A stretch of DNA of 63,996 nt, filler included, from Reclinomonas americana ATCC 50394 (lineage: Eukaryota): assembly GCA_048213135.1 (NCBI GenBank). It is 5 parts of 4 records of this genome, joined end to end, with 100 filler letters (N's around TTAATTAATTAA, not from the genome) between each part and the next. Parts side by side here need not be neighbours in the genome. Positions count along the whole stretch, not along the records: positions 1 to 27,223 come from PS015334.1; positions 27,324 to 49,472 come from PS015335.1; positions 49,573 to 54,409 come from PS015337.1; positions 54,510 to 61,990 come from PS015337.1; 1 more part is not named here. One strand, given 5' to 3'. A model generated the notes under the pieces. It was not told where the DNA came from. It saw only the letters and a list, made by a program, of their open reading frames with translations, and did not search any database. The translations under genes were made by a program, and so were the position numbers. Position 1 is the stretch's first letter, and each line of letters opens with the position of its first letter. Below are positions 1 through 61,920 of the stretch, in pieces.

Positions 1-15
1 CACGCATGACGCAAC

Positions 16-1009
16 GCCCGACTCCACCAGTTTGCCGCACACAGTGGGGAAGAGAAACGGATTACCGTGCAGCTGCGAGCAGACCTGTTCCAGGAGAATC
101 ACCAGCAGTAGCTCCTTCCGCGGAAGCGCAGCCACATGCAACGACGACGAGGTCGGGCGGTGCGAGGACGCCAACGCAATCTGCGAGTCACTACGCGGGT
201 ACGGCGGTCGTGCAGCAGCACGGTCGGTAGCATGCGACGGAGAGGCCGCCGAGGCCGACGACGACGACGACGATGCAATGTCCACCTCAGCCTGCAGTGT
301 TCGAGTCGAGTCAGTACAATTACAATCCACACAAAGGAGATGTGTGTGTTCGAACCCAGTACGAGGGCGGCGGCAAGCGCGTGTACAGGCTGTCGGTCTT
401 GGTGGCGCCGCCATTGGGCGGCGGTTGTGCGGAAGGCAGTGGCGGAGGCGGAGGTGGCGGCGACGAGGACGACACGGGTGTCGGCGGCATCGGCGAGGTC
501 GCCGCCGCCGAGGACACCGACGAAGAATCGGAGCTGCGACTGCCGCCGACCGAGGCCGTGCGGCCCAGCATCAAGTGGCCGACAAGATCCTGCAGAAACT
601 TCTTCGACCTGGACACATACTGCTGCGTGCTGGAGAGACGCGACGAGATGGCCTCCTCATCCTGCCGACCAATCACCCGCTTCGTTCGACGCCGTCGCTT
701 CCTCAGCGGCGGTGACGACGCCACACGCGGCAACTGCACCGACGCACTATCATCAGTCGCTGTTGTTGTCGTCGTTGTTGCTGTCGTCGACGTGCGCTCT
801 GCATCTGCATCTGCTGCCGCGTCTTCGCCAGTCTGTGACGACGCAGACGACGACGATGATGATGCAGATCGAGTCTGTGTGTGCTGATCAGCGTCTCGCC
901 TACACAAGCCAACGCATGCACACGGCATAGGCGTAACTGTAGACCCCAGAGCCACACGCCGTGCCGGTCGATGCCGATGACGCGCATGATGACGCGACGA
1001 TGCTGACGA
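16..1009 (-). CDS. 5' exons of the HRI-like eIF2alpha kinase on an apparently inverted contig (partial)
   Basis: Spliced minus-strand frame ends RKELLLVILLEQVCSQLHGNPFLFPTVCGKLVESG, then a phase-0 donor at 15; resembles the HRI N-terminal motif (LLLVSLLEHL...FKLLC..F.KMG) and continues as YLSSNDF at 1971 on the + strand. Confidence 0.7.
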
Positions 1010-1970
1010 NNNNNNNNNNNNNNNNNNNNNNNNNNNNNNNNNNNNNNNNNNNNNNNNNNNNNNNNNNNNNNNNNNNNNNNNNNNNNNNNNNNNNNNNNNN
1101 NNNNNNNNNNNNNNNNNNNNNNNNNNNNNNNNNNNNNNNNNNNNNNNNNNNNNNNNNNNNNNNNNNNNNNNNNNNNNNNNNNNNNNNNNNNNNNNNNNNN
1201 NNNNNNNNNNNNNNNNNNNNNNNNNNNNNNNNNNNNNNNNNNNNNNNNNNNNNNNNNNNNNNNNNNNNNNNNNNNNNNNNNNNNNNNNNNNNNNNNNNNN
1301 NNNNNNNNNNNNNNNNNNNNNNNNNNNNNNNNNNNNNNNNNNNNNNNNNNNNNNNNNNNNNNNNNNNNNNNNNNNNNNNNNNNNNNNNNNNNNNNNNNNN
1401 NNNNNNNNNNNNNNNNNNNNNNNNNNNNNNNNNNNNNNNNNNNNNNNNNNNNNNNNNNNNNNNNNNNNNNNNNNNNNNNNNNNNNNNNNNNNNNNNNNNN
1501 NNNNNNNNNNNNNNNNNNNNNNNNNNNNNNNNNNNNNNNNNNNNNNNNNNNNNNNNNNNNNNNNNNNNNNNNNNNNNNNNNNNNNNNNNNNNNNNNNNNN
1601 NNNNNNNNNNNNNNNNNNNNNNNNNNNNNNNNNNNNNNNNNNNNNNNNNNNNNNNNNNNNNNNNNNNNNNNNNNNNNNNNNNNNNNNNNNNNNNNNNNNN
1701 NNNNNNNNNNNNNNNNNNNNNNNNNNNNNNNNNNNNNNNNNNNNNNNNNNNNNNNNNNNNNNNNNNNNNNNNNNNNNNNNNNNNNNNNNNNNNNNNNNNN
1801 NNNNNNNNNNNNNNNNNNNNNNNNNNNNNNNNNNNNNNNNNNNNNNNNNNNNNNNNNNNNNNNNNNNNNNNNNNNNNNNNNNNNNNNNNNNNNNNNNNNN
1901 NNNNNNNNNNNNNNNNNNNNNNTGCCTTGTGTGTTCTGTCTGTCTGCCTGACGTGCTCGTGTCACTGCAG

Positions 1971-4786: not shown

Positions 4787-4830
<44 letters not shown>

Positions 4831-5747: not shown

Positions 5748-5779
<32 letters not shown>

Positions 5780-10099: not shown

Positions 10100-10569
10100 G
10101 TGGTCGTACGATTTGAGTGCGGCAAACGCCGCCGTCCCGCTCCTGTTCAACACCACCACTGGCATTCTCATTCCACCACTGCCCACGGATCGGCACTCGG
10201 GACTCGTTGCGTCGCCCCGCAGCGTGGTAGTTTTTACACAGTGACCAGCCCTCACCTTCTCTCCTCCTTCAGACCGAGTTTGTGTACTACGTGTTCGCGC
10301 CGTTGCTGCCGCAGAGCAAGGTCTTCTTGCTGGGCGAGACGGCCAAGATCGCCACCGTGAGCGAGCAGCGGATCGTGTCCATCAGTGACACGGCCGCGCA
10401 GCTGCGCGTGCAAGTGCGCGGCGAGATGGGCGAGTCGGTGCAGCTGACATTCACCACGCCCGGCAGCCAGCTGGCCGCTGTATTTTCGAAGAATTGTGTG
10501 ATTCCACCGAATCAGAGCACAGTGGCGTTTGTGGTGCAAGCCGGCACACGCACAGTTTCTTGCCAGTGA
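10100..10569 (+). CDS. 3' exons of the glycoside hydrolase-like gene on an apparently inverted contig
   Basis: WSYDLSAA...|TEFVYYVFAPLLPQSKVFLLGETAKIATVSEQRIVSIS...SCQ*; acceptor phase matches the donor at 12135 on the - strand. Confidence 0.72.
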
Positions 10570-10860: not shown

Positions 10861-11447
<587 letters not shown>

Positions 11448-12135: not shown

Positions 12136-15100
12136 CATATGTAGGGTACGCTGTCGGGCAGGCCAAGGTGCCACGGCAGCAGTGTGTAGTTGGCATACGT
12201 GTCGGCTGGTGGAAAATTAAAAACCAGTTAGCCTCGGTGCGCCAACAACTTTCATACGCTGCGCAAGCGCACCAGCAAAAAAGAGAATCCAATCATTGTT
12301 GGCGATGGAGGTCTTGGCGGCGTTGACCTCGCCACGCGGTCCGTCGTCCAGGAACACCGCGTCGAGCGTGGTGGCCGGCTGTTCTCTCCTTCGTGAGATA
12401 TCAAGAACAAGCACATCACTTCGGTCACACGCACCTTGCTCGGACGCAGAAGTGTGCCCCCCTGGTTGCACGTGCGCATGACGAGCAGCTTGTCGGTGTA
12501 CCCAATCTGCATCACCAGTAAAAAATCAGCACGGCATCATCGAGGCGCGCCCATGCGCGGAGTGACGCACTCCATCACCAATGCCCACAGGTCCGGCACT
12601 CAGAGCACTGACAATTGCCTGCAGCGCAGGATTCGGCTCATCCAGGTACTGCGACGGTGCACCAGGCTGGTGGCTCGTGGACCAAAAATTATCTGCAAGC
12701 ACCTCGAGCTCAGCACGACAGACGATGTAAAGGCACGCTCCTCACACGACAAGACCCTTGAAAGGCCGCAAGCCCACTGCCCAGGCCAGCATCGAGGTGG
12801 TGCCGATCTGTGCATGAGCAGTCAGCAGCAGTGCAACTGCGGCAGCAGCATCACTGCACAACAAAATGCACCTTCCATTGCTGTGGCGCACGTGCCAGGT
12901 GATAATCGTCACTGCACCCAAGAGTTAAGGGAGATTGACTCAGCACGTACATCCCTCTCTCTGTCTGCACAACGCAACGAGACACGAATGTGCGTGACTT
13001 GCGGCACCATTGTGCTAACCAAGTAATCACTCGGCAATGCCATGCAGTACTCGATGGTGAGGTTGGCACGCTGCGCCGCACGACCCATCTCCAGCATGTA
13101 CGACTGCATGGGATTCTGGTCGACGCCAGTGATGCTTGTCCTGGTGACATTGACCCAGTTGAACTGGCCGACAAAGAAATAGTGCGCGTGAGTTTGGAAC
13201 TGGGATAGAGTAGAGGAGTGCCAATGTACCTGATCAATCAGCCACTGTGCACACAAGAGTGAGTGCTGGTCGCAGTACGAGGAAGGCACAATGCACACGC
13301 AACATCCTGCTCGTACACTTTGAGTCTGTCGAGACAAGAGACAAGTACTTTTTTTCAGCAGCCTGATAACGCGTACGCAACACGACTCACCACTCACCCC
13401 CACTGCTCGCTGAAGCGGAAGAGATAGTCAAACAGCTCGGGCAGATCGGGCTCCAGCGGAATCGAGGCCAGCGGCGGAGTGACTGAGAAAGCCCAACCTT
13501 TCTTCTGGTAGTCGTTCACAGCCGCGTACCTGAAACTTATGATCAGACACTGTGCGGCATCCACACGCCACATTGGCCACTGACCAGCGGTTGTGTTGGA
13601 TGAATGGCAGGCCGACGAGGTCTTGCAGGTGCTCAATACCATTCGGGAACACCTCGGGCATGGGTTCCCACAGCACAAGGCCGTTGGAGTTGAAGGCCAT
13701 GGTTGACTTGTAGTACCACCACGAGTCGAGCTGTCACGCGGAATTTTGTTAATGAGAGAGAGGACGAGAGAACGCATCTCCACAAGAACCGACCTGCATG
13801 TAGCGGATCGGGATGCCGGCCTGCAGGTAGCTGACGCGAGCGTCCACCAAGGTCTGCTCATAGTTCTTGCTGCATCGTGTGGTCAGCGGCGCAATGTGTG
13901 CGGCATGAATACACACAGGTGAACGTTTCCACTCACCCACTCTCGGTGTTGTAGTAATAGTAGGCGCCATTGTCGGTCCTGTGGAACACTCTGTGTGTGT
14001 GAGAGCGTGGAGAGATAGTGCGCATAGAGCTGTGTCGCCACGCAACCAGTAGCCCTGCCACACGACACAATGTCAAACACGGCCATGATGAGGAAAGAGA
14101 GAGGCTGTCACGAACCAAATTCTCCACCACGACATCGGCATTGGCTGCCGCGCGCTGCTTGCCAGATTGCTGCAGGAGCACGGCGCCCCACGCGTGCACA
14201 GTGTGATTGATGCCGTATCCAGCCACCAGCAGCGTGCCGTGCGCAAAGTTTTTCGGCAACGACGACGCCAGTCCCTGCACCGCACACACAATCAGTTTGA
14301 CGCAAAAGCGCAAACACGCGACCAACGGCAGTACCTCAATGCCAAACGCCAGCGCCGATCCAAGAGCCTGCGACACAGTCTGCAGCGCCACCTTGAAATT
14401 GGCCAGCGGACTCAGCACGAGCGTGGTGGGCGACTTGGACGGCTGGCGGAGTCATTACATCAGCACAAACGGAAACCGACCACATTACGAGACAGTTATC
14501 TCCACGCACCGTGGGATCAAAGATGACGAGAGGCACGCCACCTTGCAGAGAGCCACGGTAGGAGCGCATGAGGTCGCGACCAATCACCGGAACCGCATGC
14601 AGACCCTCGAAGGTGGCAAAGCCGAGGCCCTCCAGCCACGCACTGTCGACAAACGACGGGAACGCAGTGATCACGTCTGCATCGGAGCCCGCACTATTAC
14701 AACAACGCACATGAGCACATGAGAGGCAGAGAGGCAAAGAGTGAGTGAGAGAGAAACCTGCACGCGGGCAATCCACTCGGAAATTCTTGCGCAAAGATAA
14801 TGGCATTGAGGGCGGCATACACGCGAAACCGTGTAATCACCGGCACCGATGCCGCATTGTGCCACGTAATCACTGTCTCCTGATAATCACCAAACTTGTC
14901 CTGAAAGAAGAGCGCGAGAGTGAGCGCGTTAAGTGTGTGTCACCGACCGCATCTGCGTTGATGCGCAACTCGTCCACTCCCGCGCGAGCTCTGCTGCACC
15001 TGCAGCGATCCGTCGGTCGAGCGGAACCACCGCCCGCCAGTGTGCACGGCGGTGGCGCCGCTGGAGAGCCACTGCAATCCGTCGACGTTCACCGAGTACG

Positions 15101-15261: not shown

Positions 15262-16771
15262 ATGGCTGCTCGTGTTCCGCGGCCGGTGGTTCTGCTTCTG
15301 ATCGTCGTGCTATGTTACTGCGCTGTGCTGCTGGTGTCAATGACGTGGCAGCCGGTCGACGCACAGCGCGAGGATCTGTCTGCGCGAACAAGAACACGCA
15401 ATGTCCTCGACAAGGTTTTCCTCCTCCTCCTCCTCCTCACGCACACTCTCAACGCACAGCTTGCTTACTCTGTCTGTGTGTGTGTCCATGCGTGCGCAGT
15501 TTGCTGATAGTGATGATGATGATAGTGGAGACAGTGATGAAGATGAGTTTGAGCGCGATCGCTCCGAGACACCGCAGTTGGCACTGGAGGAGCTCGAGCG
15601 ACGATACGCACGACAGCCGTACTCTGACATTACTCTGCGCGACTTTAACTTGTTGCGTTGACTTGATGCATGCACACACACACACACACACGTGTCGGTG
15701 CTGATGCGTGGAGAGAACAGCTTTGCGTTGCCTCCGCGCAAGCACAACCTCGTGGTGTTCTTCTCGTATGAGACCGAGGGATGCCGGCACTGTCCGTTTG
15801 TGCATGAGCAGATGCAGCGCATTGCGGATAAGTACCGCGAGGTGCGCAAGGCGTTTGCCGACAAGGCGCCCGTGTTCCTCGTGCGCTTCCAGGTCAATCC
15901 CGACATGATGCACATTGCGGAGAAGGTTATTATCAAGTCTGTCTCTGTTGAGGGCAAGAGAGACTCATCGTGTGCTCATTCATTCCACCAGTTCAAGCTC
16001 GACACGGTGCCGGCGCTGCTGCTGCTGAAGCCCGGCAAGACGTTTGTGCGCTACGACTTTCGGCGAGATGGAGCGTCGGCGCATGCGATTGCCACGTGGT
16101 TGGAGCGACACACCGGTGTCGACATTCGTGTGCGCATGAGATTACGCGACTCGGAGAAATCGGCGTGGGGCCAGTATGTGGAGGTCGGCGCCATTGGTCT
16201 CGGCACGCTCGCCCTGTGGATGCTGATCACGTGGTCGCCGATCATGTCGGTGTTCCGCCTCAAGGGTCGCTCCTTTGTGTTCTTCACCGTGGCTGTGGTG
16301 CGTCTCATCCTCCTGTAACACGCGAAATCTGTGCTGACTCAGTCAATGACAGGCGGTGTGGATGTTGAGTGTCGGCGGCATGTGGTACACGATTCATAGC
16401 AACATGCCGGCGTTTGGCGTGCGCGACGACGGGTCCATATTCTTCTTTTACCCATCGTGGCAGCGACAGTTCACACTAGAGGGCGTGCTGGCCGGCATTG
16501 TGGCACTCATGATCGCCTGGTCCATCATCTACGTGTCGGAGATTGTGACGCGCGACGACCTGGACGGCGGGCAAGCCATGCTGGCGACCATGATGACGGG
16601 CAGTTGAGTGATGATGATGATGATGATGATTCCTGCGCCGCGTGTGTGCGTGAGAGACAGTGTTCGCTCACCTGTGCTCGCACAGTGCTGTTTATCGGTG
16701 CGCTGGCCGGCATCATCATCTTCTCGCTAAAGATGCCACAGTACGGTCGACAAGTCATGTCGCTTGTGTAA
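15262..16771 (+). CDS. Oligosaccharyltransferase subunit, OST3/OST6 (MAGT1/TUSC3) family
   Basis: Signal peptide, thioredoxin-like CRHC motif, about 4 TM helices, SVGGMWYTIHSNMP and QRQFTLEG motifs. Confidence 0.85.
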
Positions 16772-16821: not shown

Positions 16822-18846
16822 TCATATCAGCGGGAAGGTGTTCCACAGCGACGAGTCGCACGTCTCGAACTCGAAGATGCCACCTGTGCGTGCGATGAGT
16901 GCACGAGGACGGCGACGGAGACGACATTCGGCACTCTCTTGGAGCTCACCGTACTGTCGCTCCTGAACGCCAATCAACAGGCGACTGGAGTCCGTCAAGA
17001 AGCACATGCCCGACACGTCGCCGAACAGCGTGAACGATTGCACGTCGATGAACTGCGAGTCCACACCAAACACATTGACGTGGTCGATGGATTCGGCCAC
17101 GGCCAGGTACCTTCGAGCGAAGAAGACAATGATGAGCGCACTCTGCAACGGCGAGTGGATCGGCAATCCGTTCAAACGAATACCTCTTGTCGGGGCTGAA
17201 CTTGACATTGCGCACAGCGGCGAGCTCGGCACCCAACACCGCCAGCGAGAGACGCAGGTTGCGCGAATCCCACACACGTGCCGTGGAATCCTGACCGCCA
17301 GTGGCAAGCAGAACACCATCCGGATGCCAGTCGCAGCCAAAGTTGTAGTCAATGTGTCCCTCCAGTGTGGCCACGACTGTGAGGAGCAGCGATGAGCTAA
17401 GAGACGAAAAGGTCAGCTCGCCACCACCTTGCCGCAACTCTGCTTGCTTCGCACGTCGTACAACAAGCATTCACAGCTGTCGCCGGTGACCACCAGTGTG
17501 TTGCCGTCGGGAGAGAGTGCGGATCTCTGCACACTCGTCCTTCAGCATGCACTCCCGACGCACACGATTGAAGAAGATGCACGACGACGCAACATTGACG
17601 GGCCAGGCAAAGTCAAAGCGCTCCGTGCACACAAAGGTTCGTGTGTCGAGGAAACGCACACGCATGTCGTTGTTGGAGCAGATTAACCGCGTGACTGTAC
17701 ACACGTCAACATCATGCCTCGTGAAGACTTGCCAGCAAGCCACGCAACTTCCGCTGTCAGTGGTGTGAAAGTTGAGTGCATTGGTAATGGCGTTGTCGCT
17801 GTCGCACAGCTTGCCATTGAAGACCTCGGTCTGTATCCCGCCCGCCCACACGTGGTGAGGGCACTGAGACAACACAGAAAGGGGCATGCGAGACAGACAC
17901 AACTCCGGTCAGCAGATTGCGACAGATGAGCTCCCCGTGCAGACCGCCGACAGCCACCAGCTCGTCGTTGACACACTGTGACGTGTGGCGTCAGATGGAG
18001 AACAAAAGAGGTCCATGCACGAACGCACGCTCTCGCACCATGCTGCACAGATGCACCGATGGCAGACCCTCGGGCCGCGCAAACGAAAACAGCTGCTCCG
18101 GCACGCCGACACGGAACTCGTTGCGCGTGTTGTGCACATCCAGTCGCTGCACGCTGTGATCGGCTGCACGCAAGACCACAGGCACAGTGAGTCAGAGAAG
18201 AGGAGGCGGAGGCAGCAGAAGAGCCGCACCAACAAAGTAGTACTGATGATCGTTGGGCGCCCACAGCATGTCCTTGAGCTGAAAGTGCACCGCCGACGGC
18301 ACCACCGACCGGTACGTGTGCCGAAACTCAAAGAACGACGTCACCTTGCGCTGAGGCGCTCGCAGCTGCTCTCCCCCCCTCGCAACGATGAGAGAATCGC
18401 AAGACACTGTTGTCAGTCAGTCAATCGCACCTGCTCAACCAGCCGCAAACTGGTCGTGGTGTTGCGGTAGCCTTCGTAGGTCTGTGAGCGCCGCCGCCGC
18501 ACATCCTCAGGACCCCACCGCTCACTCCACTTGATGCCCTGCATGTCGACACCGCCCTCCACCACCATCTCCCGCGTAATATCTAAGTCTCTCTACAAGC
18601 ACACAGACACATGAGCAATCAATGCACCCTCTCTGTCTCTGTGAGCGCAAGAGATGAAAGGAGCGCAACAGAGGCCGCGGCCTTTGCGCGATTCGGAACA
18701 ACACTCGCCCAACAGGGCTCTCGCAAGCGCGCGGAATCCGCCGCCGACCGCACCACATCATTGACCAACAAGCCACCGGCCAAGTCATCGTCCACTGGCA
18801 GCGTGTGCTCGCGCACCGCCGGAGCAGAGGATGCCGCGGCCGCCAT
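16822..18846 (-). CDS. WD40 repeat protein, DUF2415 / S. pombe C2A9.03-like
   Basis: DMQGIKW, VHFQLKDMLWA, AVGGLHGELIC, SNNDMRVR, WPVN, GHIDYNFGCDWHPDGVLLATGGQDSTARVWD, AVAESIDHV. Confidence 0.82.
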
Positions 18847-20015: not shown

Positions 20016-21163
20016 ATGGTCGCCGGAGGCAGCAGCGGAGGCGGATGGAAGGACATGCGTAACGGTGCAGTGTTGCAGGTGGCAGAGGCTGCCTCACTCG
20101 GTCTGCCCTTTGAAGTGTGGAAGACGCGCATGGGACGGTCTGTGTGTATACCTCACTCTCTCTCCACACACAATACGCATGCATTCATCGTGCACTCCCT
20201 CCCGCATAGGTATCGCGAGGAGTCCACAGTGCAAGCACTGCGTGCAGTGTACAATCGAGGTGGAGGAATGCGTGCATTCTGGGCCGGATTCACCCCGAAG
20301 ATGGTGGAGAGTGCCAGCAAAGGCGCAGTGTTCATGTACTCCAAGGAGGTCTCCCTCCCTGCCTCGCTCTCCGTTCTCCTTTCAGTGTACAATGCGCTCA
20401 TCTCTCTGCCTCCCCAACGCAGGCGATCCTCGCGCTCTGCAACACCGTCAACATGCCGACAACTGTGGCGGCCTTTGTTGGTGGTGCCGGTGCCGGCATC
20501 TGCCAGGTGTCTGTGATGGCCCCAATGATGCTGCTGGTGACGGGCGCGGTGACGGGCGACAAGTCGGTGTCGACCATGCAGCGTGCGAGTCGGATCTGGA
20601 GTGCGCACGGTCTGCGTGGTTTCTACCCGGGCGGCACACCGATTGCCTTCCGACAGGCCACCAACTGGGCCAGTCGCGAGGGATTCACGGTGGCCGTGCG
20701 CCAGTTTTTGCGCCGCACGCTCCATCACGGTGACATGAATGCGCGCTTGTCGGCGCCCGAGGAAGTCTGTTGCGTCCACGAGTGGCTTTTGAGGGGAGGG
20801 TAAAGTTGACTGACTGCCGGTGCTGACTGTGTGCAATGCAACCAGTGGCGGCGGCCATTGGTGGTACTCTGTCGTGCTGGAACCACCCGTTCGAGGTGGC
20901 GCGCATTGAGATGCAGAGTCGGGCCGATCTCGGCCAGTCGAGAATCACGATGATGCAGGTACACTCTCGCGTGCATGCACTCTCTGTGCTGGCGGCACCA
21001 CACTCACCCTTGACCTTCGCGCTCGCAGTGCTTTGCCCAAGTCTACAAGGAGCGAGGAATCGCCGGTCTCTTCCGTGGTGTCCCTCCGCGCATCCTCTTG
21101 TCGGTGTGGCAGACGCTGTTCATGGTCACTGGCGGACGCATCATCAAGGAGCGCCTCTCATGA
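20016..21163 (+). CDS. Mitochondrial carrier, YHM2-like citrate/oxoglutarate carrier
   Basis: LGLPFEVWKTRM, ESASKGAV, RQATNWASR, LSCWNHPFEVARIEMQS, characteristic of the YHM2 subfamily. Confidence 0.88.
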
Positions 21164-45333: not shown

Positions 45334-48256
45334 CTACTCATCGTCCTCGTCCATCAGCACACGACCACCCTCACGCGCCACGTGCCGCACAAGTTTCCGT
45401 GGCGGCGCCTTTGCCGGTGCAGCGGCTGGTTTCTTCGCGGTCTTTTTCCTGACATCTTCCTCCTCCTCTTCCTCCTCGTCCTCATCATCATCATCCTCCT
45501 CCTCCTCCTCCTCCTCATCGTCGTCGTCTTCCTCGTCGTCCGAGCTGGACGAGTCATCCGAGGCCGACGATGACGACGATGAATCGGACGAGCTCGAGTC
45601 CGACTCCGACGCCTCCTCCTTGTCTTTTTTCTTGGTGACACGACCGACCTTGCCGGAGGTTGCCTGATGTGCGAGGAACGGTGGGCGGGGTGAGGGGAAG
45701 AGCAAAGTGAGGAAGGCGAACTCACCTTGCTCTTCTTGATCGCCGGCGCTCCGTCGTCGCCGCCACCGCGCGCTGTTCGTTTGCTGCAATAGAGTAATGA
45801 ATGAAGAAGACACACGCTGAAGGTATGAGGCGGAGAAGATGGAGCGTACCCACTGCACAATAGACAGGAGATGGTGAGACACAGCACTCGAGGAGGAAAC
45901 AGAAATGAGAAGCAACGCACGTGACAGTAGTGCGGACTCGGCCCACAGCTCCGCCCTGCAGACGAGGTGAGAAGACGAATCTCTCCAACGAGAGTCACTT
46001 CCATCACTCACCTTCTTGGCGCTCAGCAGGCGCCGGTGACCCTCATCGTCGTCGTCTTCTGTGGCGAAACGCATCTGCCCCGGTCGCCATTGTGATCCCC
46101 TGTATAGCGAGGAGTGTGAGAAAACAAACAAAGGAGGCACAAGTTGCTCAGGCCGCAACTCGGCATCGTCGTCGTCGCGACTGAGATCGGCACCCTCTAG
46201 CGCCGGCGTTGACCATCGACCACCATTCTGCACTTGCTCGGCCGCCCGCCGCTTCCGTCGTCGCTTGCCGTGCTTTTCTTCCAGTTCGCGCAGCCGCTCC
46301 TCGAGATTCGACTCGGCCAGCACGACGGCCTTGCGAGTGGACTGGCGCGAGAGCAGGTCGATTTCACGCGAGCGGGTCAGGGCCTTGCTCGCGTCGGCCA
46401 CCAGTGACCAGCGGGAGGCGATGGAGCCCTGCGGGGGAGGCGAGGGGAAGGGAGGGGAGGGGGAGGAGGAGTGAGGGGGAAGGAGGGGGAAGGGAGGGGG
46501 AGAGCGAGAGGGGAGAGCGAGAGGAGAGCGAGAGGGGGAAGAGCGAGAGAAGGAGAGAGCGAGAGGGGNNNNNNNNNNNNNNNNNNNNNNNNNNNNNNNN
46601 NNNNNNNNNNNNNNNNNNNNNNNNNNNNNNNNNNNNNNNNNNNNNNNNNNNNNNNNNNNNNNNNNNNNNNNNNNNNNNNNNNNNNNNNNNNNNNNNNNNN
46701 NNNNNNNNNNNNNNNNNNNNNNNNNNNNNNNNNNNNNNNNNNNNNNNNNNNNNNNNNNNGAGGGAGAGCGAGGGGAAGGGAAGGGAAGGGAAGGGAAGGG
46801 AAGGGAGAGGAGAGGAGAGGAGAAGGAGAAGGGAGAGGGAGAAGGGAGAGGGTGAGAGGGGAGAGCGAGAGGGGAAGCGAGAGGGGAGAGCGAGAGGGAA
46901 GAGCGAGAGGGAGAAAACCAGAGGGGAGAGCGAGAGGGCGAGAGCGAGAGGGGGAGCGAGAGTGACAGAGTGGTACGAAGAGAGAGTGAGAGAGTGAGAA
47001 TTACAAGAAAGAGATTGAAAGATGAAGATAGAAAGAGCGACAGCGATGAAGGATGGGAGAGGAAAAGAGTGAATGACGAATGAGAGTGAAAGGGAAGTGA
47101 ATAATGCAGCGAATATTGTGCAGGCGAGAAGAGAGAGAAAGAAGAGAAAGGTTTGAGAAAGAGAGAGAAGAGTGGAGAGAAGAGAAACGAGAGAGAATGA
47201 GCGAGAAAGACAAAGAGAGAAAGACAAGAGAAACAGACGGAGGGGAGAGTGAGAGAGAGAGAGAGGAGTTGACCATCGTCATTGGGACATAAGTCCGACA
47301 ACAAAAACACCAAACTTCGCAGAGGCCAATCGAGGAAGACATGTTGAAGAGGTCGATCTCGCCCTCTGGCTGATGCTCCCTGATCGAGTACCACTGCGCA
47401 GAAGAAAGATGAGTTGCACAAACTAACATGAGCAGTGACTGCGTTGAAGCAGCGCACCTGATCACCGACATGCAGTGTCATGCTGTTGTCCGACCACCGA
47501 ATCACGCGGGCATTGCTTTGTGGTGCCTGTGATACAAGTCAGCAAAGAAGAACTCTTGACATGACGTGCACGACAGTACCGCACCCCATGCTCGTCCAGC
47601 TTCCATCGAATAATGTCACGCACACGCAGCCGCTCTTCCAACTCCTTGATCCTCGCCTCCAGCACTTTTTCGTCCTCGGGTTCATCCGCGCCTACCGAGC
47701 ACAAGAGTGAGCTCCACAGAGCGCAGAGTGTCGATAAAGTGTGCACACTCACCAGGCCAATCGTCATCGTCATCCACGCGGCCAGCTTTGCGATTGCGCA
47801 CTCGCTCCAGCTTGCGCACGTTGCGGGAGGCCTCGTCGAGGAGGGCCTTGTACTTTTCGGTGGAGTGGAGTTCGGGGTCGAACTTGGCGCCGGTAGTGCG
47901 AAGGAGGTACATCTGAACAGGGGGAGGAAAGGGGGACGGGAAAGGGGAGGGGAAGGGGGAGGGGGAAAGGGTGAGGGGAGGGGAGGAGAGGGGAGGGGAA
48001 AGGAGAAGCAGGGGTACGGAGCAGAAAATACTCGCTCAACAGCGTGCAGGAGAGGAAACAAGCGTGCACGTTCCTGGGTACTATGGGTAGACATCGTGGC
48101 GAGAGTGGAGATGAGGATGCAGCATCAGCAAAAAAGGGAGAGGGAGAGAGGGAGAGAGAGAGGGGAGAGAAAGCGCACAGAGAGACAGTGGTGCGAGGAC
48201 TTGAAGCGCCAAGAGCACATTGAATGCAGAGCGGACAGAGTGACGGAAACAAGGAG

Positions 48257-48332: not shown

Positions 48333-49106
48333 GAGACGAGACGACGAGAAAGAAANNNNNNNNNNNNNNNNNNNNGAGGAAGGCAGACGCAGGAAGAAAA
48401 ACAGAAAACCGAGACAGAGCGCACGGAATACAAATAGAGGTGAATCGCCAGAGGGACCCCTTCATGCACTTCACCTTCTTGGCACCGCTGACGTGATCCA
48501 GTGGTGGCACCGAGATGGTGTCGGGAACATTCTGCACGCGATATCTGCCCCAGAAATGCGGTAAGCTCACGCGATGACGAAGATTCGCACGCTCATCCAT
48601 CGCAACTGCTGCGGCTGCTTCTTCTGCTTTGGCGCCGCGGCCTTGTCCTGCGCCTGCTTCTTCTTCTTGCTCAGCGCAGACTTGCGTCCACGCGCGCTCT
48701 CCTGCCCACCGGCGCTATCACTGCTGCTCTCCTCCGCCATCTCCTGGTCCTCGCCTTGCTGGTCGAGCATGTAGGCATCCGGCACTGCAGACGCACGAGG
48801 TAAGAGAGGTGAATGCAAAAGCAGAAGCTACCAACGAACCGTCAGCATCACCACCATCGTCATCATCGTCGCCACCGTCGCCAAACAAGTCGTCGTCCAC
48901 CGACGATGTCGCTGCCGCCGATGTGGCTGCTGCCGAGGCGGCGGATGCACCGGTCGACGCGGGCTTCTCCGGCGACTTGTCGTCCCCGTCAGACTCCTCG
49001 TCGGGTGCAAACAGTGGCTCGGATTCGACTGCCGCACTGTGCTTCTTTTTCGGTCGCACGGGTGGTGATTCGGGGCGCTCGGGTGGGGCAGGGGTGTCGG
49101 TCTCGA
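45334..49106 (-). CDS. LEO1: RNA polymerase II-associated PAF1 complex subunit LEO1, 5' truncated
   Basis: RVRDIIRWK, QSNARVIRWSDNSMTLHVGDQ, DDDLFGD acidic N-terminal region, RRLLSAKK and acidic tail. Confidence 0.82.
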
Positions 49107-50095: not shown

Positions 50096-52444
50096 CTTCA
50101 CAGAATGATCACCCGTGTACGATCCATCGTAGTGGGTGTAGATGCCGGAGGCGTACGAGAAAAAGTCGCCAAACACTGCACAGGGGAAAGAGGTGAGCGA
50201 GCAAAGAGAAGGCAACACACGAGGTGATCCACGCGTGCACTGACCCGACATGACCGCCGACAGGGGTCCTTCCGTGAAGAGGTCAGCTGTGGGAGGCAAG
50301 TAAGCGTGTGCCGCAAAGGCCAAGAGACATCATCACGCACGCAACTGCGCATGGTGGTCTCGTCGCCCAGGTGCGCAAGGGAGTTCGTGGAGGAGAAGAA
50401 GCGCTTCGTCGAGTCCTTGCAATCCTGTGTCAAAGGAACCGACAATTAGCTGCCACTCCCTGGAAGCAGCTCTGTACGCACAAACATGGACACGAACCGA
50501 AGGCTCAGAGCTGCAGGTCGGAGCGACGCCGTTGTGCGACGTGTAGGGGAAGCACTCGGAGGTCGGCACACCGTGCTTTTCGAGATACTGCGTCACGACA
50601 GCTGTCACATGAGCCGATGCATTGCAACAGCGGCACGAGTCTGTGGACGCAACTCTCCAGGCGCGATCCAGGAAACCACCGCTGCAGCCTGTGATGCGAT
50701 AAAAGGATGTCAATCGCACGCCAAAATTGAGAGGCAGTGGGAATTGAGTGCGAACCCATGTCGGCCGTGTCGCAGCTGACCATGTCTTGCACGCTCAGTG
50801 GTAGCTGCACACATGAGTAAGGCACTTGACCACTCGCAGCAAGAACGCGACAGGTTGTCGATACGCACCAAGGATGAGTTGCCGCCGTTGGCGATGCAGA
50901 GACGCTCGCTGAATGATTGCACGGCAGCGAATGCCCAAGAGGAGCCGCACTGCGAGGAGGGGGAAGGTGAGCATGAAGGTGGGGGAGGGAAGGCAAGAGG
51001 AAGGACAAGAGAGAGAGAAAAGAATAAGAGGCATCACAACGGGATGCGCAGACTCATGTACAGCGAGAAGGAGAGAAAGAAAGAAAGAATGAGAGAGAGA
51101 GAGGGAGAGAGAGAGAGAAGAAGAAGAATACAAGCACACAAAGCAGCCCACAACTCACCGGCCCTTGATCAGCAATCGCATTCATGCAGTCGGGCCATTG
51201 ATTCCGCGCATCAAACCTGCGTACATCCACGTATAAGAGACTTGTGAAGATCACCAACAATTGTGATAGCGGTGCACGACGCACGACGACGGGAGGCGTA
51301 TTGAGTGCAGATAGAGCGGCGGTGCATCAATGTTCGCACGCTCCAGTCTCGGCGACAACATGGAACGCGCATCGGCGACGGTCATTCGGGCAAATCTTGA
51401 ATGCCGTGCCGCGCGCCACAGGCCATCCGGTCGCGCATTAATCCTCCGAATCATGTCATCGTTGAGCAGTGGCATCGAGCCGTCGTCGTCGTCGTCGTCG
51501 TCAATAACAGGGTCGGCGATCTCCACCAGATTCAATGGCGTCACCTCGATGCGGCCGTCGTTTCCGTCCTCCACATCAAAGTCGAAGCGCACACACGTAA
51601 TCTCCACCGTGCCGTCCTCCGCCGACACTGTGATGTTGCCGGCGTAGCGTCCGGCGGGGAATGTCGGTGGCAGCTCTGCTGTGTAGTTGTTGGTGTATGG
51701 GCCGAGGGGGACTGCACACGAGGGAGATGATAAGGATGAGGGTGCGGAAAAGAACAGATAGGAGAGTGGGATGCACGGCGCACTTGGGCACTTGATTGTG
51801 GTTTGCGGATCGCAGAGCGGCAGGTGCTGGTCCAACAGTTCGTGGCTATTGTACGCAATGGCTGTGTGGAGGGGGAGGAGAGGTTGGAAATGGAGACCAG
51901 AGATATAGAGGGCAGACAAACACGCACCAATGTGCAGCGTGGCCGAGTCCGGCAGCTTGTCCAGCACGTTGCCGACGAGTGACACGGTGAAGGGCTGGCG
52001 GAGGGAGAGAGAGAGCGGTGAGGGGGGATAGAGGAGAGGGAATGAGAGAGAGAGAGAGAGAAAGGGAGAAGGCAGACAACAGGATGCGAAAACGACACAA
52101 CAAGGCGCTTTACCTGGGGAGAGTGAACGAGAAAGAGAGAGAGAGAGGAGGGAGACAGAGACAGACAGAGAGAGAGAGAGAGAAAGAGCACACAGACAAG
52201 CAGAGAACAAGCAGCTGAGCAAGTGAGAGACAAGGTAGACAAGGGTGTTCCATTGAGAGAGAGAGAGGGAGAGAGAGAGAGAGAAGGCGAGACCTCACCT
52301 TATTACGCAGCGGAGGACTTGGAGTCACAGACAACGAGTCAATGCGGAAGAGAGCCTTTGAGGTCGAGCACTGCGCGCGCGCACACACAACCGGTCACGA
52401 TCAACAACAATACGTCATTCACACAATGCACACACTCACACACA

Positions 52445-56273: not shown

Positions 56274-57320
56274 TTACTTGGAGCTGTCGTACACGCCGGC
56301 GTAGACCTGCGACTCAATGCCGCACTCGTTCTTGCCGCGGCGGATCCAGAAGACGCCGTCCATGCCCCACGAGGTGCCCCAGCTGTTGTTGACAATCCAG
56401 TACTCCTCCTTCTTCTCATCCACACCCCAGCCAATGATCTTGACGGCGTGGCCGCCAGCCAGGCTGCCGTGCGTGTGGTGGTACACACCAGACTTGTAGT
56501 TGAAGAAGTCGTCGTAGACCGAGAAGCCAGCCTCCACCGGGCCGTTGGTCATCACCTCAGTGGCGATCGAGGCAGCATCGGTGAACGAGCCGGTGCCCTT
56601 GGCGTAGAAGTACTTCGAGTTCGACGGCGACGGGCACGCAGAGGTGGCCGGGAGCGGCTTCGGCGGCACAGCAGTGCACGTGCCAGAGTCGCCGCCACCA
56701 GAGGTGTACGGGTAGCACGAGTCGAGCGGCACGCCAGACTGGGTCATGAAGGCCCAGGCGTTCTGCAGGTAGCCGCCCTGGCAGCCGTAGTCGGTGGTGT
56801 CGCAGCTCACCAGCTCCTGCGGGGAGAGCACCGGCTCCAGCTGGCCCTTGGTGGCAATGCACACGCGGTCGGCGAACGACTCGGTGGCGGCAAACGCCCA
56901 GCAGCTGCCGCACTGCGCCTGGTCGCGGATGTTGTTGATGCTCTTGGCGCACTCGGCCCACTGGGTGGCGGCGTTGAACGAGTCGGGAATGTCGGCGCGG
57001 TGCAGCACCACCTGAGTGCCAAACACCGGGGCGTTCTCAGTGTCCAGGCGCAGGCCCAGGCGCTTCTTGGCTGAGAGAGAGAGAGAGAGAGCAAAAAAGT
57101 GAGGACGAGTCACGCAAACACGGACAACAACTGCGATGTGCCACTCACCATCCTTGAAGGTCACACCGCGGAACACCTCATTGTCGCCGGCGACCCAGCT
57201 GGCACCCGAGTTGTTCACAATGAACTGGGTGCGCTTGCTGAGCACCAGGTCGTCGTCCTGCAGAGCGGACGCGACCACCACAATGGCGGCGATGATGGCG
57301 ACGACAATGAACTGACGCAT
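56274..57320 (-). CDS. Cathepsin B-like cysteine peptidase (C1A), active site intact, single intron 57071-57148
   Basis: Signal peptide, IRDQAQCGSCWAF, LSPQELVSCD, GCQGG, GGHAVKIIGWG, YWIVNNSWG; no obvious His-His occluding loop. Confidence 0.96.
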   Translation of the reverse strand: MRQFIVVAIIAAIVVVASALQDDDLVLSKRTQFIVNNSGASWVAGDNEVFRGVTFKDGEWHIAVVVRVCVTRPHFFALSLSLSAKKRLGLRLDTENAPVFGTQVVLHRADIPDSFNAATQWAECAKSINNIRDQAQCGSCWAFAATESFADRVCIATKGQLEPVLSPQELVSCDTTDYGCQGGYLQNAWAFMTQSGVPLDSCYPYTSGGGDSGTCTAVPPKPLPATSACPSPSNSKYFYAKGTGSFTDAASIATEVMTNGPVEAGFSVYDDFFNYKSGVYHHTHGSLAGGHAVKIIGWGVDEKKEEYWIVNNSWGTSWGMDGVFWIRRGKNECGIESQVYAGVYDSSK

Positions 57321-58324
57321 GCTGCGAGTGGGGAGAGAGGGAGACTGCAGTCAGTCGCTGAAAAGCGCGTGGAGTTTTGCAGAATATTCTTCAGAGAGGA
57401 GGGAGGCAAGGCGCACATGGAGGAAACGAAGAGCGGAGAGGAGGAGGAGGGCGAGGAGGGAGAGGAAAGGGGGGCGGAAAAACAGGCGAAATGCGCCATG
57501 ACAAGAGTTTGCCCGCCGCGTGCCACGGCACTCACACAAACACACACAAAGCATCATGCAACAGCGCCCCTGTCACAAGTGGAAGCAGTCATGCGCACGC
57601 ACAAGAAAAAAGAGGAGGAGTGGAGTGTGGTGAATGAAAAGCGAGGAAATGTGCGCCATCTTCTCGCACGCGCTCCAAAAAATGCAACGACCCCCACTAC
57701 ACACACACGCGCAGTGTGCATGTGCAGCGACTCGCAGAGTCTCTACACTCCCCAGTCGGGAACATGCAGGAGACGTGTCACAACAAAAAAAAGAGACCAA
57801 GCAATCAATCGCAGCAGGTTACACTGTAACCCAAAAGAGAAAAAAGTCGACAACCAATGACACAGATAGGAGGAGGAGAAAAACAGGGTAGCAAGGGGGA
57901 AGGCGGAGGGGAATGGGAGAGGAAGAGTAAAGGAAGCGCGTTCTCACCTCTCTCAACACAAAATGTGGAAATGAAAAAGTTAGACGACGGAAATTTGCGG
58001 CTCGGGGGTCGCTGCCTCGACTCCGGCGTGCCGGCCGCCACAACAAAAAAACACAACTCCTCTCGCACCGCGCACTCTGCACGAGAGACAGTGTGAGAGA
58101 GCGCGAGCGACAGACAACTCTGCACACTCCGCAAGCACCAAGTTCCAAAATCGGACAGGAATATTCTGCATTGAGATCGTGGTTGATGCAGCAAGCGGCG
58201 TAAAGTGCAAGAGATTGCGCCAGAGAGGATCCGGAGAGACATCAGAAGGAGGAAGCGTGACCCAGCGCAATCAGAACTCAGTAACCGAATTGGCCGCCAT
58301 TTCAATCCGTTGCACAAACAAACA

Positions 58325-61237
58325 ATGGCCCTTGCGCCGACACAAGTACTCTCCGGCCAACAACATGGCCACGCGCCACTCTCTGCATATGCAGTGCCCT
58401 ACACCGACATGTACAGCGCAGTGCCGACGTTGACAGGTGCGCAAGCACCACCGCAACAGCACATGGAGTGGGAGAGCGTGCCACTGCCGACAACTCCCAC
58501 CATGTCGATGCGCACGACGACCATGGGAGGCGCAGAGGATGATAATAACAGCAGTGGTGGGAAGGCGGTGGCGGATGCGGTGTTTGGGGACGGAAAGAGC
58601 GTGCAGTCGCAGTTGGTGCGCGGAGTGGCGGGATCGGTGAGCAGACTCTCAAGCACCAAGCCAAGCGCGTCTTCGTATTGTGTTTCTTATGGTGGGTGCA
58701 AAGATGATGAGCAGTGTGCAGCAACGCGTGTCGGGAGTGTTTTCGTTGGATCCGCTGCGACCGTACTTTGAGCATGTGGACACGCGTGAGGTGTTGCGGA
58801 GGGCGCTCATGGCGTTTGTGCCGAAGCGCGATCGGTTGTCGAGTGAGAAGCCGGAGTTGTATGGTTTGAGAGAGGGAAAGGGAAGGGGGGAGGAGGAGGG
58901 GGAGAGAGTAACTTTGATTTTTTCCGATTCTGTGGATCTGTTGTTTTCGCCCTTCCTCACGTTCTTTGCCTTCTGTCTTTCATCTGCATTCCTGCAGGCG
59001 CTGGGGCGTCCTTATCATCTTCGCAGTTGTCTCTCTGCTACGCCCTCTGTCCCATCTCTGGCGCTGTGTACTTGCCGTTCCGACCTTGCTGTGCCCTCTG
59101 TCCTTTATTCGCTCTCCCCCATACGCTGTGGCGACGACGTCCTTGTCTTTGCTGTCCTTGACATCTCACTTGCCTCGCCCACTGTCTTCACTCTCATCCT
59201 TGACTTTCTGCATTGCTGCCCGCTCACTTCATCCGTTCTCTGTCCTTCATCCGCTCACCCGTCGGCACTGTGGCGTCGTTGTCCTTACGCTCCCCTTGCT
59301 GTGCCCTCTTTCCTTCATCGGCTCTCCCACTTGTGCTGTGGCGTGCTTCCCCTGACCTCTCACTTGCCTCGCCCACTGTCTTTCATCTCGTCCATGACTT
59401 TTGCATTCCTGCCCGCTCACTTCATCGCTCTCTGTCCTTCATGTGTTCTCCCAGCGCACGGTGGCGTAGTTGTCCTTCCGCTTACCTTGCTATGCCTTCT
59501 TTCCTTCATCCGCTCTCCCATATGTGCTGTGGCGTGCTGCCCCTGATCTCACATGAATCGCCCACTGTATTCCATCTCGCCCTTGACTTTTTGCATTCCT
59601 GCCCTTCGACCGTTCTCCCAGTGTACTGTGGAATTCTTGTCGCCCCGCTGCAGTTGTCTTTCTGCATCGCTTTGTGTCTTTCATCTCAGGCGCTGATGTG
59701 TCGTTCTTTCATCGCTGCGTTTGACCTCTTACTTGCTGCACCCACTGGTTTCTATCTGCTCGCCCTCATGCGCTGTGGTGCACTTGTCTGTTCACCTTCC
59801 TTGACCTCTCACTGTCCTCCATCGACTTGCTATGGCGTCGTTGTCCTTCCTTCGTTCTTGACCTCTCACTTGGTGCACCCTCTGTCCTTCATATACTCGC
59901 TCACACTCTTTGTTGCCATTGGAGACCTCTCTGGAATCACTCTTTCATCCACCCCCATGCTGCCATGGTGGCATCCTCCCACTCCTCTCCCTCCTCTCCC
60001 TCCTCCCCCTCCTCTCCCTCCTCCCCCTCCTCTCCATCCCCTCTCCCTCCTCTCCTCTCCTCTCCTCTCCTCTCCTCTCCTCTCCTCTCCTCTCCTCTCC
60101 TCTCCTCTCCTCTCCTCTCCNNNNNNNNNNNNNNNNNNNNNNNNNNNNNNNNNNNNNNNNNNNNNNNNNNNNNNNNNNNNNNNNNNNNNNNNNNNNNNNN
60201 NNNNNNNNNNNNNNNNNNNNNNNNNNNNNNNNNNNNNNNNNNNNNNNNNNNNNNNNNNNNNNNNNNNNNNNNNNNNNNNNNNNNNNNNNNNNNNNNNNNN
60301 NNNNNNNNNNNNNNNNNNNNNNNNNNNNNNNNNNNNNNNNNNNNNNNNNNNNNNNNNNNNNNNNNNNNNNNNNNNNNNNNNNNNNNNNNNNNNNNNNNNN
60401 NNNNNNNNNNNNNNNNNNNNNNNNNNNNNNNNNNNNNNNNNNNNNNNNNNNNNNNNNNNNNNNNNNNNNNNNNNNNNNNNNNNNNNNNNNNNNNNNNNNN
60501 NNNNNNNNNNNNNNNNNNNNNNNNNNNNNNNNNNNNNNNNNNNNNNNNNNNNNNNNNNNNNNNNNNNNNNNNNNNNNNNNNNNNNNNNNNNNNNNNNNNN
60601 NNNNNNNNNNNNNNNNNTCCCTCCCCTTGCCCCTCCCCTCCTCTCCCTCCCCAATGCTCGCCTGCACTCACTAAATCTCCTTTGATGCAGGACCAACTCT
60701 CGCCATGTTCCTATTCGCCTGGGTCTTCCACTTGATGGCGGGCATGGAGCAGAGCTCGGGCGTGCTGGCGGCCTCCACAGTGTGGATGTTCTCGGCAGGC
60801 GGTTCGTTTCCCCCATGTTCTTTCCCCACGCACATTTGTGCCCTCACCACCACTCACTCTCGCTACAGCCGCCTTCTCCGTCATGTTCATGCTTAATCTG
60901 CGCGTGGGCATTGTGCACTGCTTCAGCGTCGTCGGCTACCTCTTTTATCCGCTCACAGTGGGTGCGCTGATGTCCACTCTCCCGTCGTTCCTCTTCTTCC
61001 TCGGCCTCTGCGCTGTCATGGGTCTCGGGTGCTCGTCGCTGGTGAGTACGCACTTGCGCAATGCCCCCTCCCCTGTGCGTTGGTGTCGCTCACACGGAAA
61101 AAAACGACAACCAGGTCTTCAACGTTCTGGCCATGGACGAGCTGACACATTCCAGCTTGCAACAGCGGCTACTGAGCGGCATCCTAGCAGCTGCCGTGCC
61201 CGCCATATTCTCCGTAGTCATGTATTTCATGCTCTAA
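58325..61237 (+). CDS. Yip1-domain membrane protein, YIPF3-like
   Basis: LDPLRPYFEHVDTREVLRR...PELY|GPTLAMF, SVVGYLFY and several TM segments; long repeat-filled intron 58864-60690. Confidence 0.75.
59080..59610. repeat. Degenerate intronic tandem repeat of about 200 bp, three copies
   Basis: CCTTGCT.TGCC.TCT...GCTGTGGCG...TCTCACTTGCCTCGCCCACTGT...TTGACTTT.TGCATT recurs near 59084, 59294 and 59485. Confidence 0.75.
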
Positions 61238-61308
61238 AAGCCGTAGGGCATCACTTCAATAGATCGCAATCATCATGTTGTATCTGCCGTGCTCCTCCTC
61301 CCCTCCTC

Positions 61309-61920
61309 TCACTGCATGTTCCACTTGCCGGCGTACGCCTGCCCCACGATATGTGAGCGAGTCACGTGAGTATAGAGAGATGGGGAGAAACGAGCGTCAC
61401 ACCTGATCCTCAATGCCGCACTCGTCGGTGCCGCGGGCAATCATAAAGTAGCCCTCCATGCCCCAGCTGGTGCCCCAGCTATTGGCCACCAGCCTGTGCG
61501 CGCACACATGCAGGTGAGGGGAAGCGGTGGATGTGGCAGGGAAAATCACATGAAAGCAACGCACCAGTATTTCTGGTTCGCAGTCGGGTCCACTCCCCAG
61601 CCAATAATCTGCGTGCGACACGCGAGTGAGAGCAACGACAAAGCTATCACGCGTCTCGTGTTGGCAGCAGACCTTGATGGCGTGTCCGCCAGCCCTGCGA
61701 TTCACAGTGAGCAGTAACGAAGGAAAATGATGTAAGGGGGAAACCCAACGCAACAAATCGCCAGCCACGTGCTTGTACACGCCCGTGGTGTAGCTGCGAA
61801 GCAGAGCAAAATGAGTGGCGCGTCCAATGGGAAGACAATCGCATCACGCGCGCAAACCTGAAAAAGTCCTCATACACTGAAAAGCCGGCCTCCAGGGGTC
61901 CGTTGTTCAGGATTTCGGCT
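61309..61920 (-). CDS. Third cathepsin B-like peptidase, 3' part only, intron-rich
   Basis: [47 protein letters not shown]...YW|LVANSWG...[16 protein letters not shown]. Confidence 0.88.

Follow-up and report, generated by a model that had tools for sequence, protein, structure and literature searches.

General Features of the Window

The DNA considered here (the window) is a stretch of 63,996 nucleotides from Reclinomonas americana ATCC 50394 (GenBank assembly GCA_048213135.1), made up of five parts of four records joined by runs of N, and the element under study is GTTGCGT, an atypical 5′ splice site (donor) motif found at the start of many of its introns. This eukaryotic nuclear DNA has a G+C content of about 45–61% (4-kb windows), and 4,198 letters of the window are N. 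Confirmed coding sequence has a third-position G+C content (GC3) of 0.75, and introns are numerous and short, with a median length of 66–69 bases. All of the evidence described below comes from this 64 kb of one genome.

Pfam matches revealed genes for a protein kinase, OST3/OST6, BRE, eIF3c, fimbrin, Tam41, Leo1, three cathepsin B paralogs, a mitochondrial carrier, GST and WD40 proteins. The nearest cathepsin B in the protein collection shares 49% identity, and a metagenome scan with a cathepsin B exon gave 80 loci (not used further), the top one at 53% identity; the lineage is therefore poorly sampled. No small nuclear RNA (snRNA) gene was detected in the window with Rfam, which returned zero matches at the gathering score and, at E values up to 1, only three weak matches to microRNA families that were far under their cut-offs.

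In the following, donor positions are given with their strand, and a slash within a motif marks the exon–intron boundary. Donors that follow an exon ending in G are termed class 1 (G-class), and GTTGNG donors class 2.

A Second Class of Donors Tied to Non-G Exon Ends

Introns were located by homology with a purpose-written spliced protein-to-genome aligner, in which all GT and GC donors could be combined with all AG acceptors. The resulting homology set contains 18 introns: four and seven in cathepsin B paralogs B and C, respectively (14 homologs), one in paralog A (one homolog), and six in the fimbrin gene (12 homologs), where the placement of the intron at 32421 is weak. Six of the seven donors with a non-G exon end read GTTGCGT (61754−, 50653−, 50345−, 31875+, 33356+ and 33510+; Table 1), the seventh being 51284−, whereas none of the 11 donors after G is GTTGNG. 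All 11 have G at +5, with motifs such as GTGAGT, GTGCGT, GTTCGT, GTCAGT, GTTTGC and similar. The split of 6/7 versus 0/11 corresponds to p ~4e-4 by Fisher's exact test, calculated by hand.

A larger sample came from a purpose-written gene finder, which scores codon log-odds, frame consistency, acceptor and branch sequences and intron length, and accepts GT with AG only. Run without a donor model it gave a noisy set of 70 introns that recovered 5/18 verified donors, yet GTTGCG was already the commonest donor hexamer (eight introns), and GTTGNG made up 10/32 donors after a non-G base versus 1/38 after G (p = 0.0017). Self-training with a two-component donor mixture produced 116 introns and recovered 14/18 verified donors; the mixture, which was unsupervised, converged on [AC]AG/GTGcGT (~75%) and H/GTTGCGT (~25%; H is A, C or T). 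Because this mixture sees the −1 base, the finder was retrained with an exon-blind donor model (+3 to +9 only), and among the 101 introns then obtained GTTGNG accounted for 23/40 non-G donors versus 1/61 G donors (p = 5e-11). Across the union of all donor sets the figures are 27/46 and 1/89, and the sole GTTGNG donor after an exonic G is 14046−. GTTGCGT is thus confirmed as a genuine and frequent second 5′ splice-site class linked to non-G exon ends. Approximately 1 in 5 to 1 in 4 of the window's introns belong to it, and it is used where the coding sequence bars G as the last exon base.

The original prediction, which had proposed GTTGNG as a frequent donor class bound to non-G exon ends, is upheld on both counts, and the dependence on the −1 base that it asked to be checked holds even in the set made without a donor model. 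All 22 of the sites it listed carry the motif given for them after A, C or T, and at most of them CTNAC and then CAG follow at 50–85 bases. Homologs support 61754−, 50345−, 31875+, 33356+ and 33510+ (Table 1), the exons around 17748−, 17593− and 17438− yield one open WD40-like frame, and the gene finder recovers 13303−, 14969−, 10206+, 15652+, 16603+, 17903−, 20769+, 21938−, 24730+ and 30093+. The listed site 6609+ was also recovered, but only with an intron of 215 bases. Of the remaining listed sites, 15− is at the window edge, 41449− is interrupted by a stretch of N, and 52497− falls outside the gene models.

The self-trained versions of the finder recovered 13–14 of the 18 verified donors and missed four verified introns of cathepsin B paralog C. 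In one case 17748 was wrongly joined to 17377, skipping two small exons, and in the first runs a limit of 400 bases on intron length, exceeded by the 427-base intron of the eIF3c gene, resulted in a split gene model. No eIF3c homologs for spliced alignment were found in the homolog searches, so the evidence for its introns comes from the gene finder and Pfam profile coordinates.

Motif Abundance

The motif is more abundant than expected by chance. GTTGCG occurs 68 times on both strands versus 50.0 ± 6.2 in 100 dinucleotide shuffles, none of which reached 68, and GTTGCGT occurs 32 times versus 11.3 ± 3.3 (maximum 19), an approximately threefold enrichment. Twenty of these 32 heptamers are predicted or verified donors, and the base preceding GTTGCG is G in only 5/68 cases. 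A gene-agnostic test considered GT hexamers seen at least eight times and looked for CTNAY plus YAG at 45–130 bases downstream. The hexamer most enriched for this module was GTTGCG, with 26/66 occurrences versus a background of 19.4% (p = 1.3e-4), and the module follows 16/30 copies of GTTGCGT.

Between 35821 and 36300 on the + strand there are three copies of GTCAGTTGCGT (at 35837, 36060 and 36207), each followed by purine runs resembling GGGAAAGGGAG. The GTTGCGT heptamers at these three positions belong to a purine-rich dispersed or tandem repeat and are not introns.

These non-intronic copies, and the fact that most sites rest on a self-made gene finder, would fit the view that the GTTGCG sites are an artefact or chance product, i.e., that they are not true cleavage sites or are copies of one mobile 'introner'. 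Several observations make this highly improbable: six sites are each fixed by 9–14 homologs with a free choice among all GT and GC donors, the heptamer lies about threefold above shuffled sequence, similarity outside the splice signals is seen in only one pair of class-2 introns, and the 5′ motif is unlike U12-type signals while the branch motif is CTNAY. Copies of an introner or other mobile element were rejected after an all-against-all comparison of 101 intron bodies, which gave 14 similar pairs and only one between class-2 introns, both of them long and doubtful calls.

Intron Type

Class-2 introns are GT–AG throughout, although this is partly by construction (GT/GC–AG in the aligner, GT–AG in the finder). 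Their removal restores the reading frame, as fixed by 9–14 homologs each in six cases and by open-frame continuity in three. A CTNAY motif upstream of the 3′ end is present in 25/26 class-2 and 76/83 class-1 introns, counts to be read with the caveat that the acceptor score used rewards CTNAY, and the median distance is 17 and 18.5 bases, respectively. A CAG 3′ end is common to both donor classes. Given the shared branch motif, branch distance and CAG end, class-2 introns are ordinary U2-type introns, spliced by the same type of spliceosome as class 1, and are not U12-type. The U12-type consensus has [AG]TATCCTT at the 5′ end and TCCTTAAC at the branch; this intron type was rejected for class 2, where the 5′ end is GTTGCGT and the branch is the same CTNAY as in class 1.

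Donors Following an Exonic G

The original prediction described donors after G as very degenerate, which is overstated. In the self-trained set 71/84 have G at +5 and 73/84 have T or C at +6, giving the pattern G/GTNNGY, and the commonest hexamers are GTGAGT (14) and GTGCGT (10). Three of the examples cited as degenerate (GTCTCC, GTACAT and GTTATT) fall among the 12/83 donors (14046− set aside) that lack G at +5, all of which have A at −2 and G at −1. In the tally of exon and intron positions, donors with A at −2 comprise 21 with G at +5 and 12 without, and those lacking A at −2 comprise 53 with and two without. The offsetting of a missing +5 G by A at −2 is classic exon–intron compensation, comparable to the AG//GU versus //GURAG classes (PMC11347140).

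Displacement of the Motif and Pairing with U1

When class-2 donors are scored on the class-1 matrix, the score is +2.24 nats with a +1 shift versus −4.66 with none, and columns +3 to +7 alone give +2.81 and −4.24. GTTGCGT is the class-1 heptamer G/GTGCGT with its second base changed to T. The claim that the usual G has moved from +5 to +6 is supported, and a one-base displacement of the normal motif is the signature of the shifted register described in human (PMC4856993). Together with the findings above, it suggests that the splicing machinery of this organism reads intron starts at two positions one base apart. The best explanation, to which we assign a probability of roughly 55%, is a second donor class of U2-type introns at which a U1-type 5′ end pairs one base further into the intron, the partner probably being an altered or second U1.

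According to this explanation, the 5′ end of a U1-type snRNA would bind a heptamer of the shape G-[G/U]-U-G-N-G-U in both classes, over −1 to +6 in the common class (G/GUGNGU) and over +1 to +7 in the GTTGCGT class. Later steps involving U6 and U5 would then fix cleavage at the first GU of the heptamer, a mechanism that has been demonstrated for rare human shifted-register sites (PMC4856993). The partner is probably not plain canonical U1. It could be one U1 with G at position 5, as in the ACGUAC of Mastigamoeba, working in two registers, or a second U1 variant complementary to GUUGCGU. A full code of this kind, with two registers or two U1 species, where G/GUNNGY is read normally, GUUGCGU is read one base further in and the last exon base dictates the choice, is put forward tentatively.

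Duplex energies were calculated for the canonical U1 5′ end (ACUUACCUG; the form used was AUACUUACCUG) under a nearest-neighbor model, which ignores the proteins that hold the U1–donor helix. In a scan of all 16,384 heptamers at U1 positions 3–9, canonical ACUUACC ranked 2nd for class 1 and ACGUACC 3rd, which implies a near-canonical U1 for that class, as does the presence of A at −2 in all 12 class-1 donors without G at +5. For class 2 canonical U1 ranked 15,621st and the best heptamer was ACGCAAC. The +5 position of class 2 has 22 C to 2 A, versus 16 C to 22 A at the matching class-1 position (p = 1.2e-4), a specificity for C that is unpredicted by a plain shift. The energies of class 2 (given below), the heptamer rank and the demand for C at +5 all argue against an unaltered U1. 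The suggestion that the organism routinely uses the shifted register with its ordinary U1 is accordingly not supported as first stated, and the other option raised in the original prediction, a variant U1 or U6, is at least as likely. Among normal-register donors after a non-G base GTGCGT was found five times and GTGAGT not at all, compared to 11 and 15 times after G (p = 0.043), and GTAAGT occurs once after a non-G base. This skew and the +5 C of class 2 hint at G in position 5 of U1. A U1 with AUACGUACCUG would form six contiguous pairs with the class-2 consensus in the shifted register, at −5.3 kcal/mol, whereas the canonical form reaches only −0.6.

A number of points weigh against pairing one base further in. 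The mean predicted duplex energy with canonical U1 is −1.35 kcal/mol for class 2, compared to −2.57 for random GT sites and −7.15 for class 1, so that class-2 donors are predicted to lack the stable shifted-register pairing with canonical U1 that characterizes human-type sites. A U1 with G at position 5 pairs better with H/GUGCGU (−8.4) than with H/GUUGCGU (−5.3), yet GTTGNG outnumbers GTGCGT by 27 to 5 among non-G donors, an excess that a single-U1 model leaves unexplained. Thecamonas and the Mamiellales, which are reported to have a standard U1, likewise favor C at +4 (bioRxiv 10.1101/2022.06.08.495308), and the bias toward C therefore lends an altered U1 little support. No sign of extended pairing is seen at positions −1, −2 and +8 of class 2, and the sequences predicted are the same whether the register is shifted or the U at +3 is bulged. 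Homology fixes only six of the ~27 class-2 donors, the others being predicted by the self-made finder with the recovery rate given above and at least one wrong join. Lastly, the U1 partner of class 2 is hypothetical because no U1 or U6 sequence was found in the window searched, and statements on snRNAs are inferred from cis motifs and nearest-neighbor energies.

Alternatively, two RNA species could act in the same pairing register, with a dedicated second U1 reading GTTGCGT and canonical U1 reading G/GTNNGY. The 5′ end of the former could be, for example, ACGCAAC at positions 3–9, three changes from ACUUACC. This heptamer tops the 16,384 for class 2 (−10.89 versus a background of −4.55 kcal/mol), canonical U1 is far down the ranking, and no single heptamer suits both classes well. 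Every one of the five variable positions in class 2 is specified, C at +5 among them, and the 27-to-5 excess over GTGCGT fits a strong dedicated partner: a U1 containing ...ACGCAAC... is predicted to pair with class 2 at −11.4 kcal/mol, which would remove the difficulty posed by the rarity of GTGCGT. A separate dedicated species nevertheless seems rather unlikely, as the Rfam scan of the window found no such gene, and we know of no organism in which a variant U1 serves a large share of introns. The identity of class 2 with the class-1 heptamer at six of seven positions would also need the extra assumption that the variant was derived from canonical U1.

The same U1 might instead keep to the normal register and accommodate the UU at +2/+3 by bulging out one of the two residues. 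The sequence requirements are the same as for the shifted register, and the registers proven in human include one-nucleotide bulges at +2/+3, for which 68 sites are predicted (PMC4856993). Free folding, however, picked the shifted, unbulged duplex with every U1 variant tried. As a general rule, a bulge is costlier than a 1 × 1 mismatch. In the bulged arrangement G at −1 would add a pair, yet 27/28 class-2 donors are without it, although selection for the motif only where G is impossible would give the same result. Overall, a bulge appears improbable.

Equally doubtful is recognition independent of U1, in which GUUGCGU is read by a protein, or later by U6 or U5, as an extreme form of the AG//GU versus //GURAG trade-off. 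Compared by eye, the motif shows no obvious match to the U6 ACAGAGA box that would allow pairing in the normal register, and a seven-base motif that equals a shifted class-1 U1 site would have to be a coincidence. In its favor, class-2 pairing to canonical U1 falls below that of random GT sites, and two trade-off donor classes are reported in worms, humans, plants and fission yeast (PMC11347140).

Intron Coordinates and Neighboring Genes

The class-2 introns and three comparison introns are listed in Table 1, and two further GTTGCG introns, both absent from the gene models, are likely. One lies in the kinase gene at 5227–5292 (+), with the sequence cca/GTTGCGTG...CGCCGCAG; the other is in cathepsin B paralog B at 61919–61980 (−), reading aga/GTTGCGCC, and was placed by 1/14 homologs, its upstream exon being lost in a run of N.

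Table 1. Positions of introns with GTTGNG donors and of comparison introns in the window.
Intron	Gene	Position	Strand	Support or remark
GTTGCGT, exon end ...gtc	Fimbrin	31875..31938	+	12/12 fimbrin homologs
GTTGCGT, exon end ...cac	Fimbrin	33356..33417	+	9/12 homologs; two took a GC donor 3 bases downstream, one another
GTTGCGT, exon end ...gtc	Fimbrin	33510..33580	+	12/12 homologs
GTTGCGT, exon end ...ttt	Cathepsin B paralog B	61695..61754	−	14/14 homologs
GTTGCGT, exon end ...aga	Cathepsin B paralog C	50588..50653	−	14/14 homologs; absent from the original list
GTTGCGT, exon end ...gca	Cathepsin B paralog C	50287..50345	−	13/14 homologs
GTTGCGT	WD40-like	17695..17748	−	Predicted donor; acceptor gives open frame through next two exons
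GTTGCGT	WD40-like	17527..17593	−	Open-frame continuity; missed by gene finder
GTTGCGG	WD40-like	17378..17438	−	Open-frame continuity; downstream exon matches Pfam WD40
GTTGTGT	WD40-like	17831..17903	−	Gene finder
GTTGCGT	BRE-like	21874..21938	−	Gene finder; first residue of downstream exon is Pfam BRE position 224
GTTGCGT	BRE-like	22458..22537	−	Gene finder; downstream exon begins at BRE profile position 59
GTTGCGT	13-intron gene, family not recognised	12912..12978	−	Gene finder
GTTGCGT	13-intron gene	13245..13303	−	Gene finder
GTTGCGT after exonic G (single exception)	13-intron gene region	13979..14046	−	Finder without donor model and self-trained finder
GTTGCGC	13-intron gene	14901..14969	−	Finder without donor model and self-trained finder
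GTTGCGT		10206..10272	+	Gene finder
GTTGCGT	OST3/OST6	15652..15720	+	Finder without donor model and self-trained finder
GTTGAGT	OST3/OST6	16603..16685	+	Both finders; last OST3_OST6 profile position in upstream exon is 270 of 294
GTTGCGT	Mitochondrial carrier	20769..20845	+	Both finders; flanking exons match Pfam Mito_carr
GTTGAGT	eIF3c	24730..24792	+	Finder without donor model and self-trained finder
GTTGCGT		30093..30152	+	Gene finder
GTTGCGG	Leo1-like	46100..46159	−	Finder without donor model and self-trained finder
GTTGCGA		48545..48606	−	Finder without donor model and self-trained finder
Comparison, gtc/GTGCGT; only homology-fixed non-G donor that is not GTTGNG	Cathepsin B paralog C	51217..51284	−	14/14 homologs
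Comparison, atg/GTGAGT; ordinary G-class donor	Cathepsin B paralog A	57071..57148	−	Spliced alignment, one homolog, P0020
Comparison, cag/GTGAGG; G-class donor, 427 bases	eIF3c	25957..26383	+	Read from sequence; Pfam eIF-3c_N positions 536/540 flank

The three cathepsin B paralogs are all on the − strand: A (56277–57326) has one intron, C (49800–51709) at least eight, and B (61312–61980), the front of which is cut by a run of N, at least four. In paralog C preceding exons give weak matches to an ML domain and a C1 propeptide, an architecture also found among the database matches. In the WD40-like gene (17378–17903, −), the GTTG[C/T]G donors 17903, 17748, 17593 and 17438 are exactly 155 bases apart, so that exon-plus-intron units are of equal length. 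A tandem DNA repeat was rejected as the cause, as Tandem Repeats Finder detects none, and the spacing may reflect an old duplication of exon–intron units, or chance.

The eIF3c intron at 25957–26383 is the longest well-supported intron and contains a long pyrimidine-rich stretch. In the large protein kinase gene (2217–7060, +) the kinase subdomains are separated by very long tracts of acidic, serine-rich and polyglutamine sequence, and the kinase profile runs on across an intron at 5731. According to the gene models, a histone H3 gene lies at 10861–11444 (+), with two short G-class introns (gcag/GTGAGA and cccg/GTGAGT) and a sequence somewhat divergent from the usual H3. Long, intronless open reading frames with WD40 repeats occupy 62035–63996 (−), part of which has a 126-base period (63558–63909, 70% matches). 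They score poorly on the self-trained codon model, yet their Pfam matches are very strong, and their codon usage may differ from that of the other genes.

Comparison with Known Donor Systems

Human 5′ splice sites read in a shifted register were reportedly described by Roca and Krainer in 2009. The human type named in the original prediction is GUUAAGU, whereas the motif here is GUUGCGU. Both shifted and bulged registers have been proven in human cells, and all validated non-canonical registers together account for ~1.5% of sites (Tan et al. 2016, PMC4856993). The likeness is close: GU is followed by U at +3, G has moved from +5 to +6, cleavage is at the GU, and the motif is the normal U1 site displaced by one base. 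The class described here differs from the human sites as reported there in comprising ~20–25% of introns, in being almost absolutely tied to non-G exon ends, and in its predicted pairing with canonical U1, which is weaker than that of random GT sites.

Co-evolved pairs of donor and U1 are described in the Archamoebae, with GUUUGU(U) and U1 ACAAAC in Entamoeba, and GUGCGC and U1 ACGUAC in Mastigamoeba (Roy and Bowser, bioRxiv 10.1101/2022.06.08.495308). These donors are likewise atypical, the Entamoeba one having U at +3 and that of Mastigamoeba C at +4, and are explained in that account by a changed U1 5′ end; a U1 of the Mastigamoeba type would give class 2 a duplex of six pairs. Unlike the present case, in which there are two classes, one of them seemingly register-shifted, a single consensus is reported to serve nearly all introns of those species.

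AG//GU and //GURAG are described as two major donor classes (Shen et al. 2024, PMC11347140). The trade-off between exon and intron sides is seen here as well, in that all 12 of the 12 donors without G at +5 have an AG exon end, and strong intron motifs occur at weak exon sides. Compared to the classes reported there, the intron-strong class of the window is //GUUGCGU and the split is sharper (27/46 non-G versus 1/89 G donors).

The strict GYGCGY donors of Mamiellales such as Ostreococcus are said to have been described by Irimia and Roy in 2008. Members of this group share with the window a GC-rich genome, short introns, GTGCGT-type donors and a CTNAC-type branch. They differ in having a single donor class and a standard U1, and no GTTGCGT class is described in the account consulted (bioRxiv 10.1101/2022.06.08.495308).

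Neither a GUUGCGU donor class nor a two-register system dependent on the −1 base turned up in a search of literature text, with logos in figures being unsearchable, and combining the motif with splicing terms returned only primers, aptamers and unrelated uses. What is new here is the combination of features of the human registers, the U1/donor pairs of Archamoebae and the AG//GU classes.

Few steps of gene expression are as conserved as donor recognition by U1. The departures known so far concern either scattered rare sites, as with the shifted and bulged registers in human, or the replacement of one consensus across a whole genome along with its U1, as in Entamoeba. Gene finders relying on one donor matrix will mis-annotate roughly one in five introns of a genome such as this one. 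If the tentative code with two registers or two U1 species is true, a human rarity would be a routine, genome-wide feature of gene structure in this organism, and exon ends would be freed from needing G. A genome with two such distinct donor motifs side by side, selected according to the last exon base, would provide a natural system for the uncoupling of U1 binding from the cleavage site, for the co-evolution of snRNAs with thousands of introns, and for the way in which coding constraints at exon ends shape intron signals.

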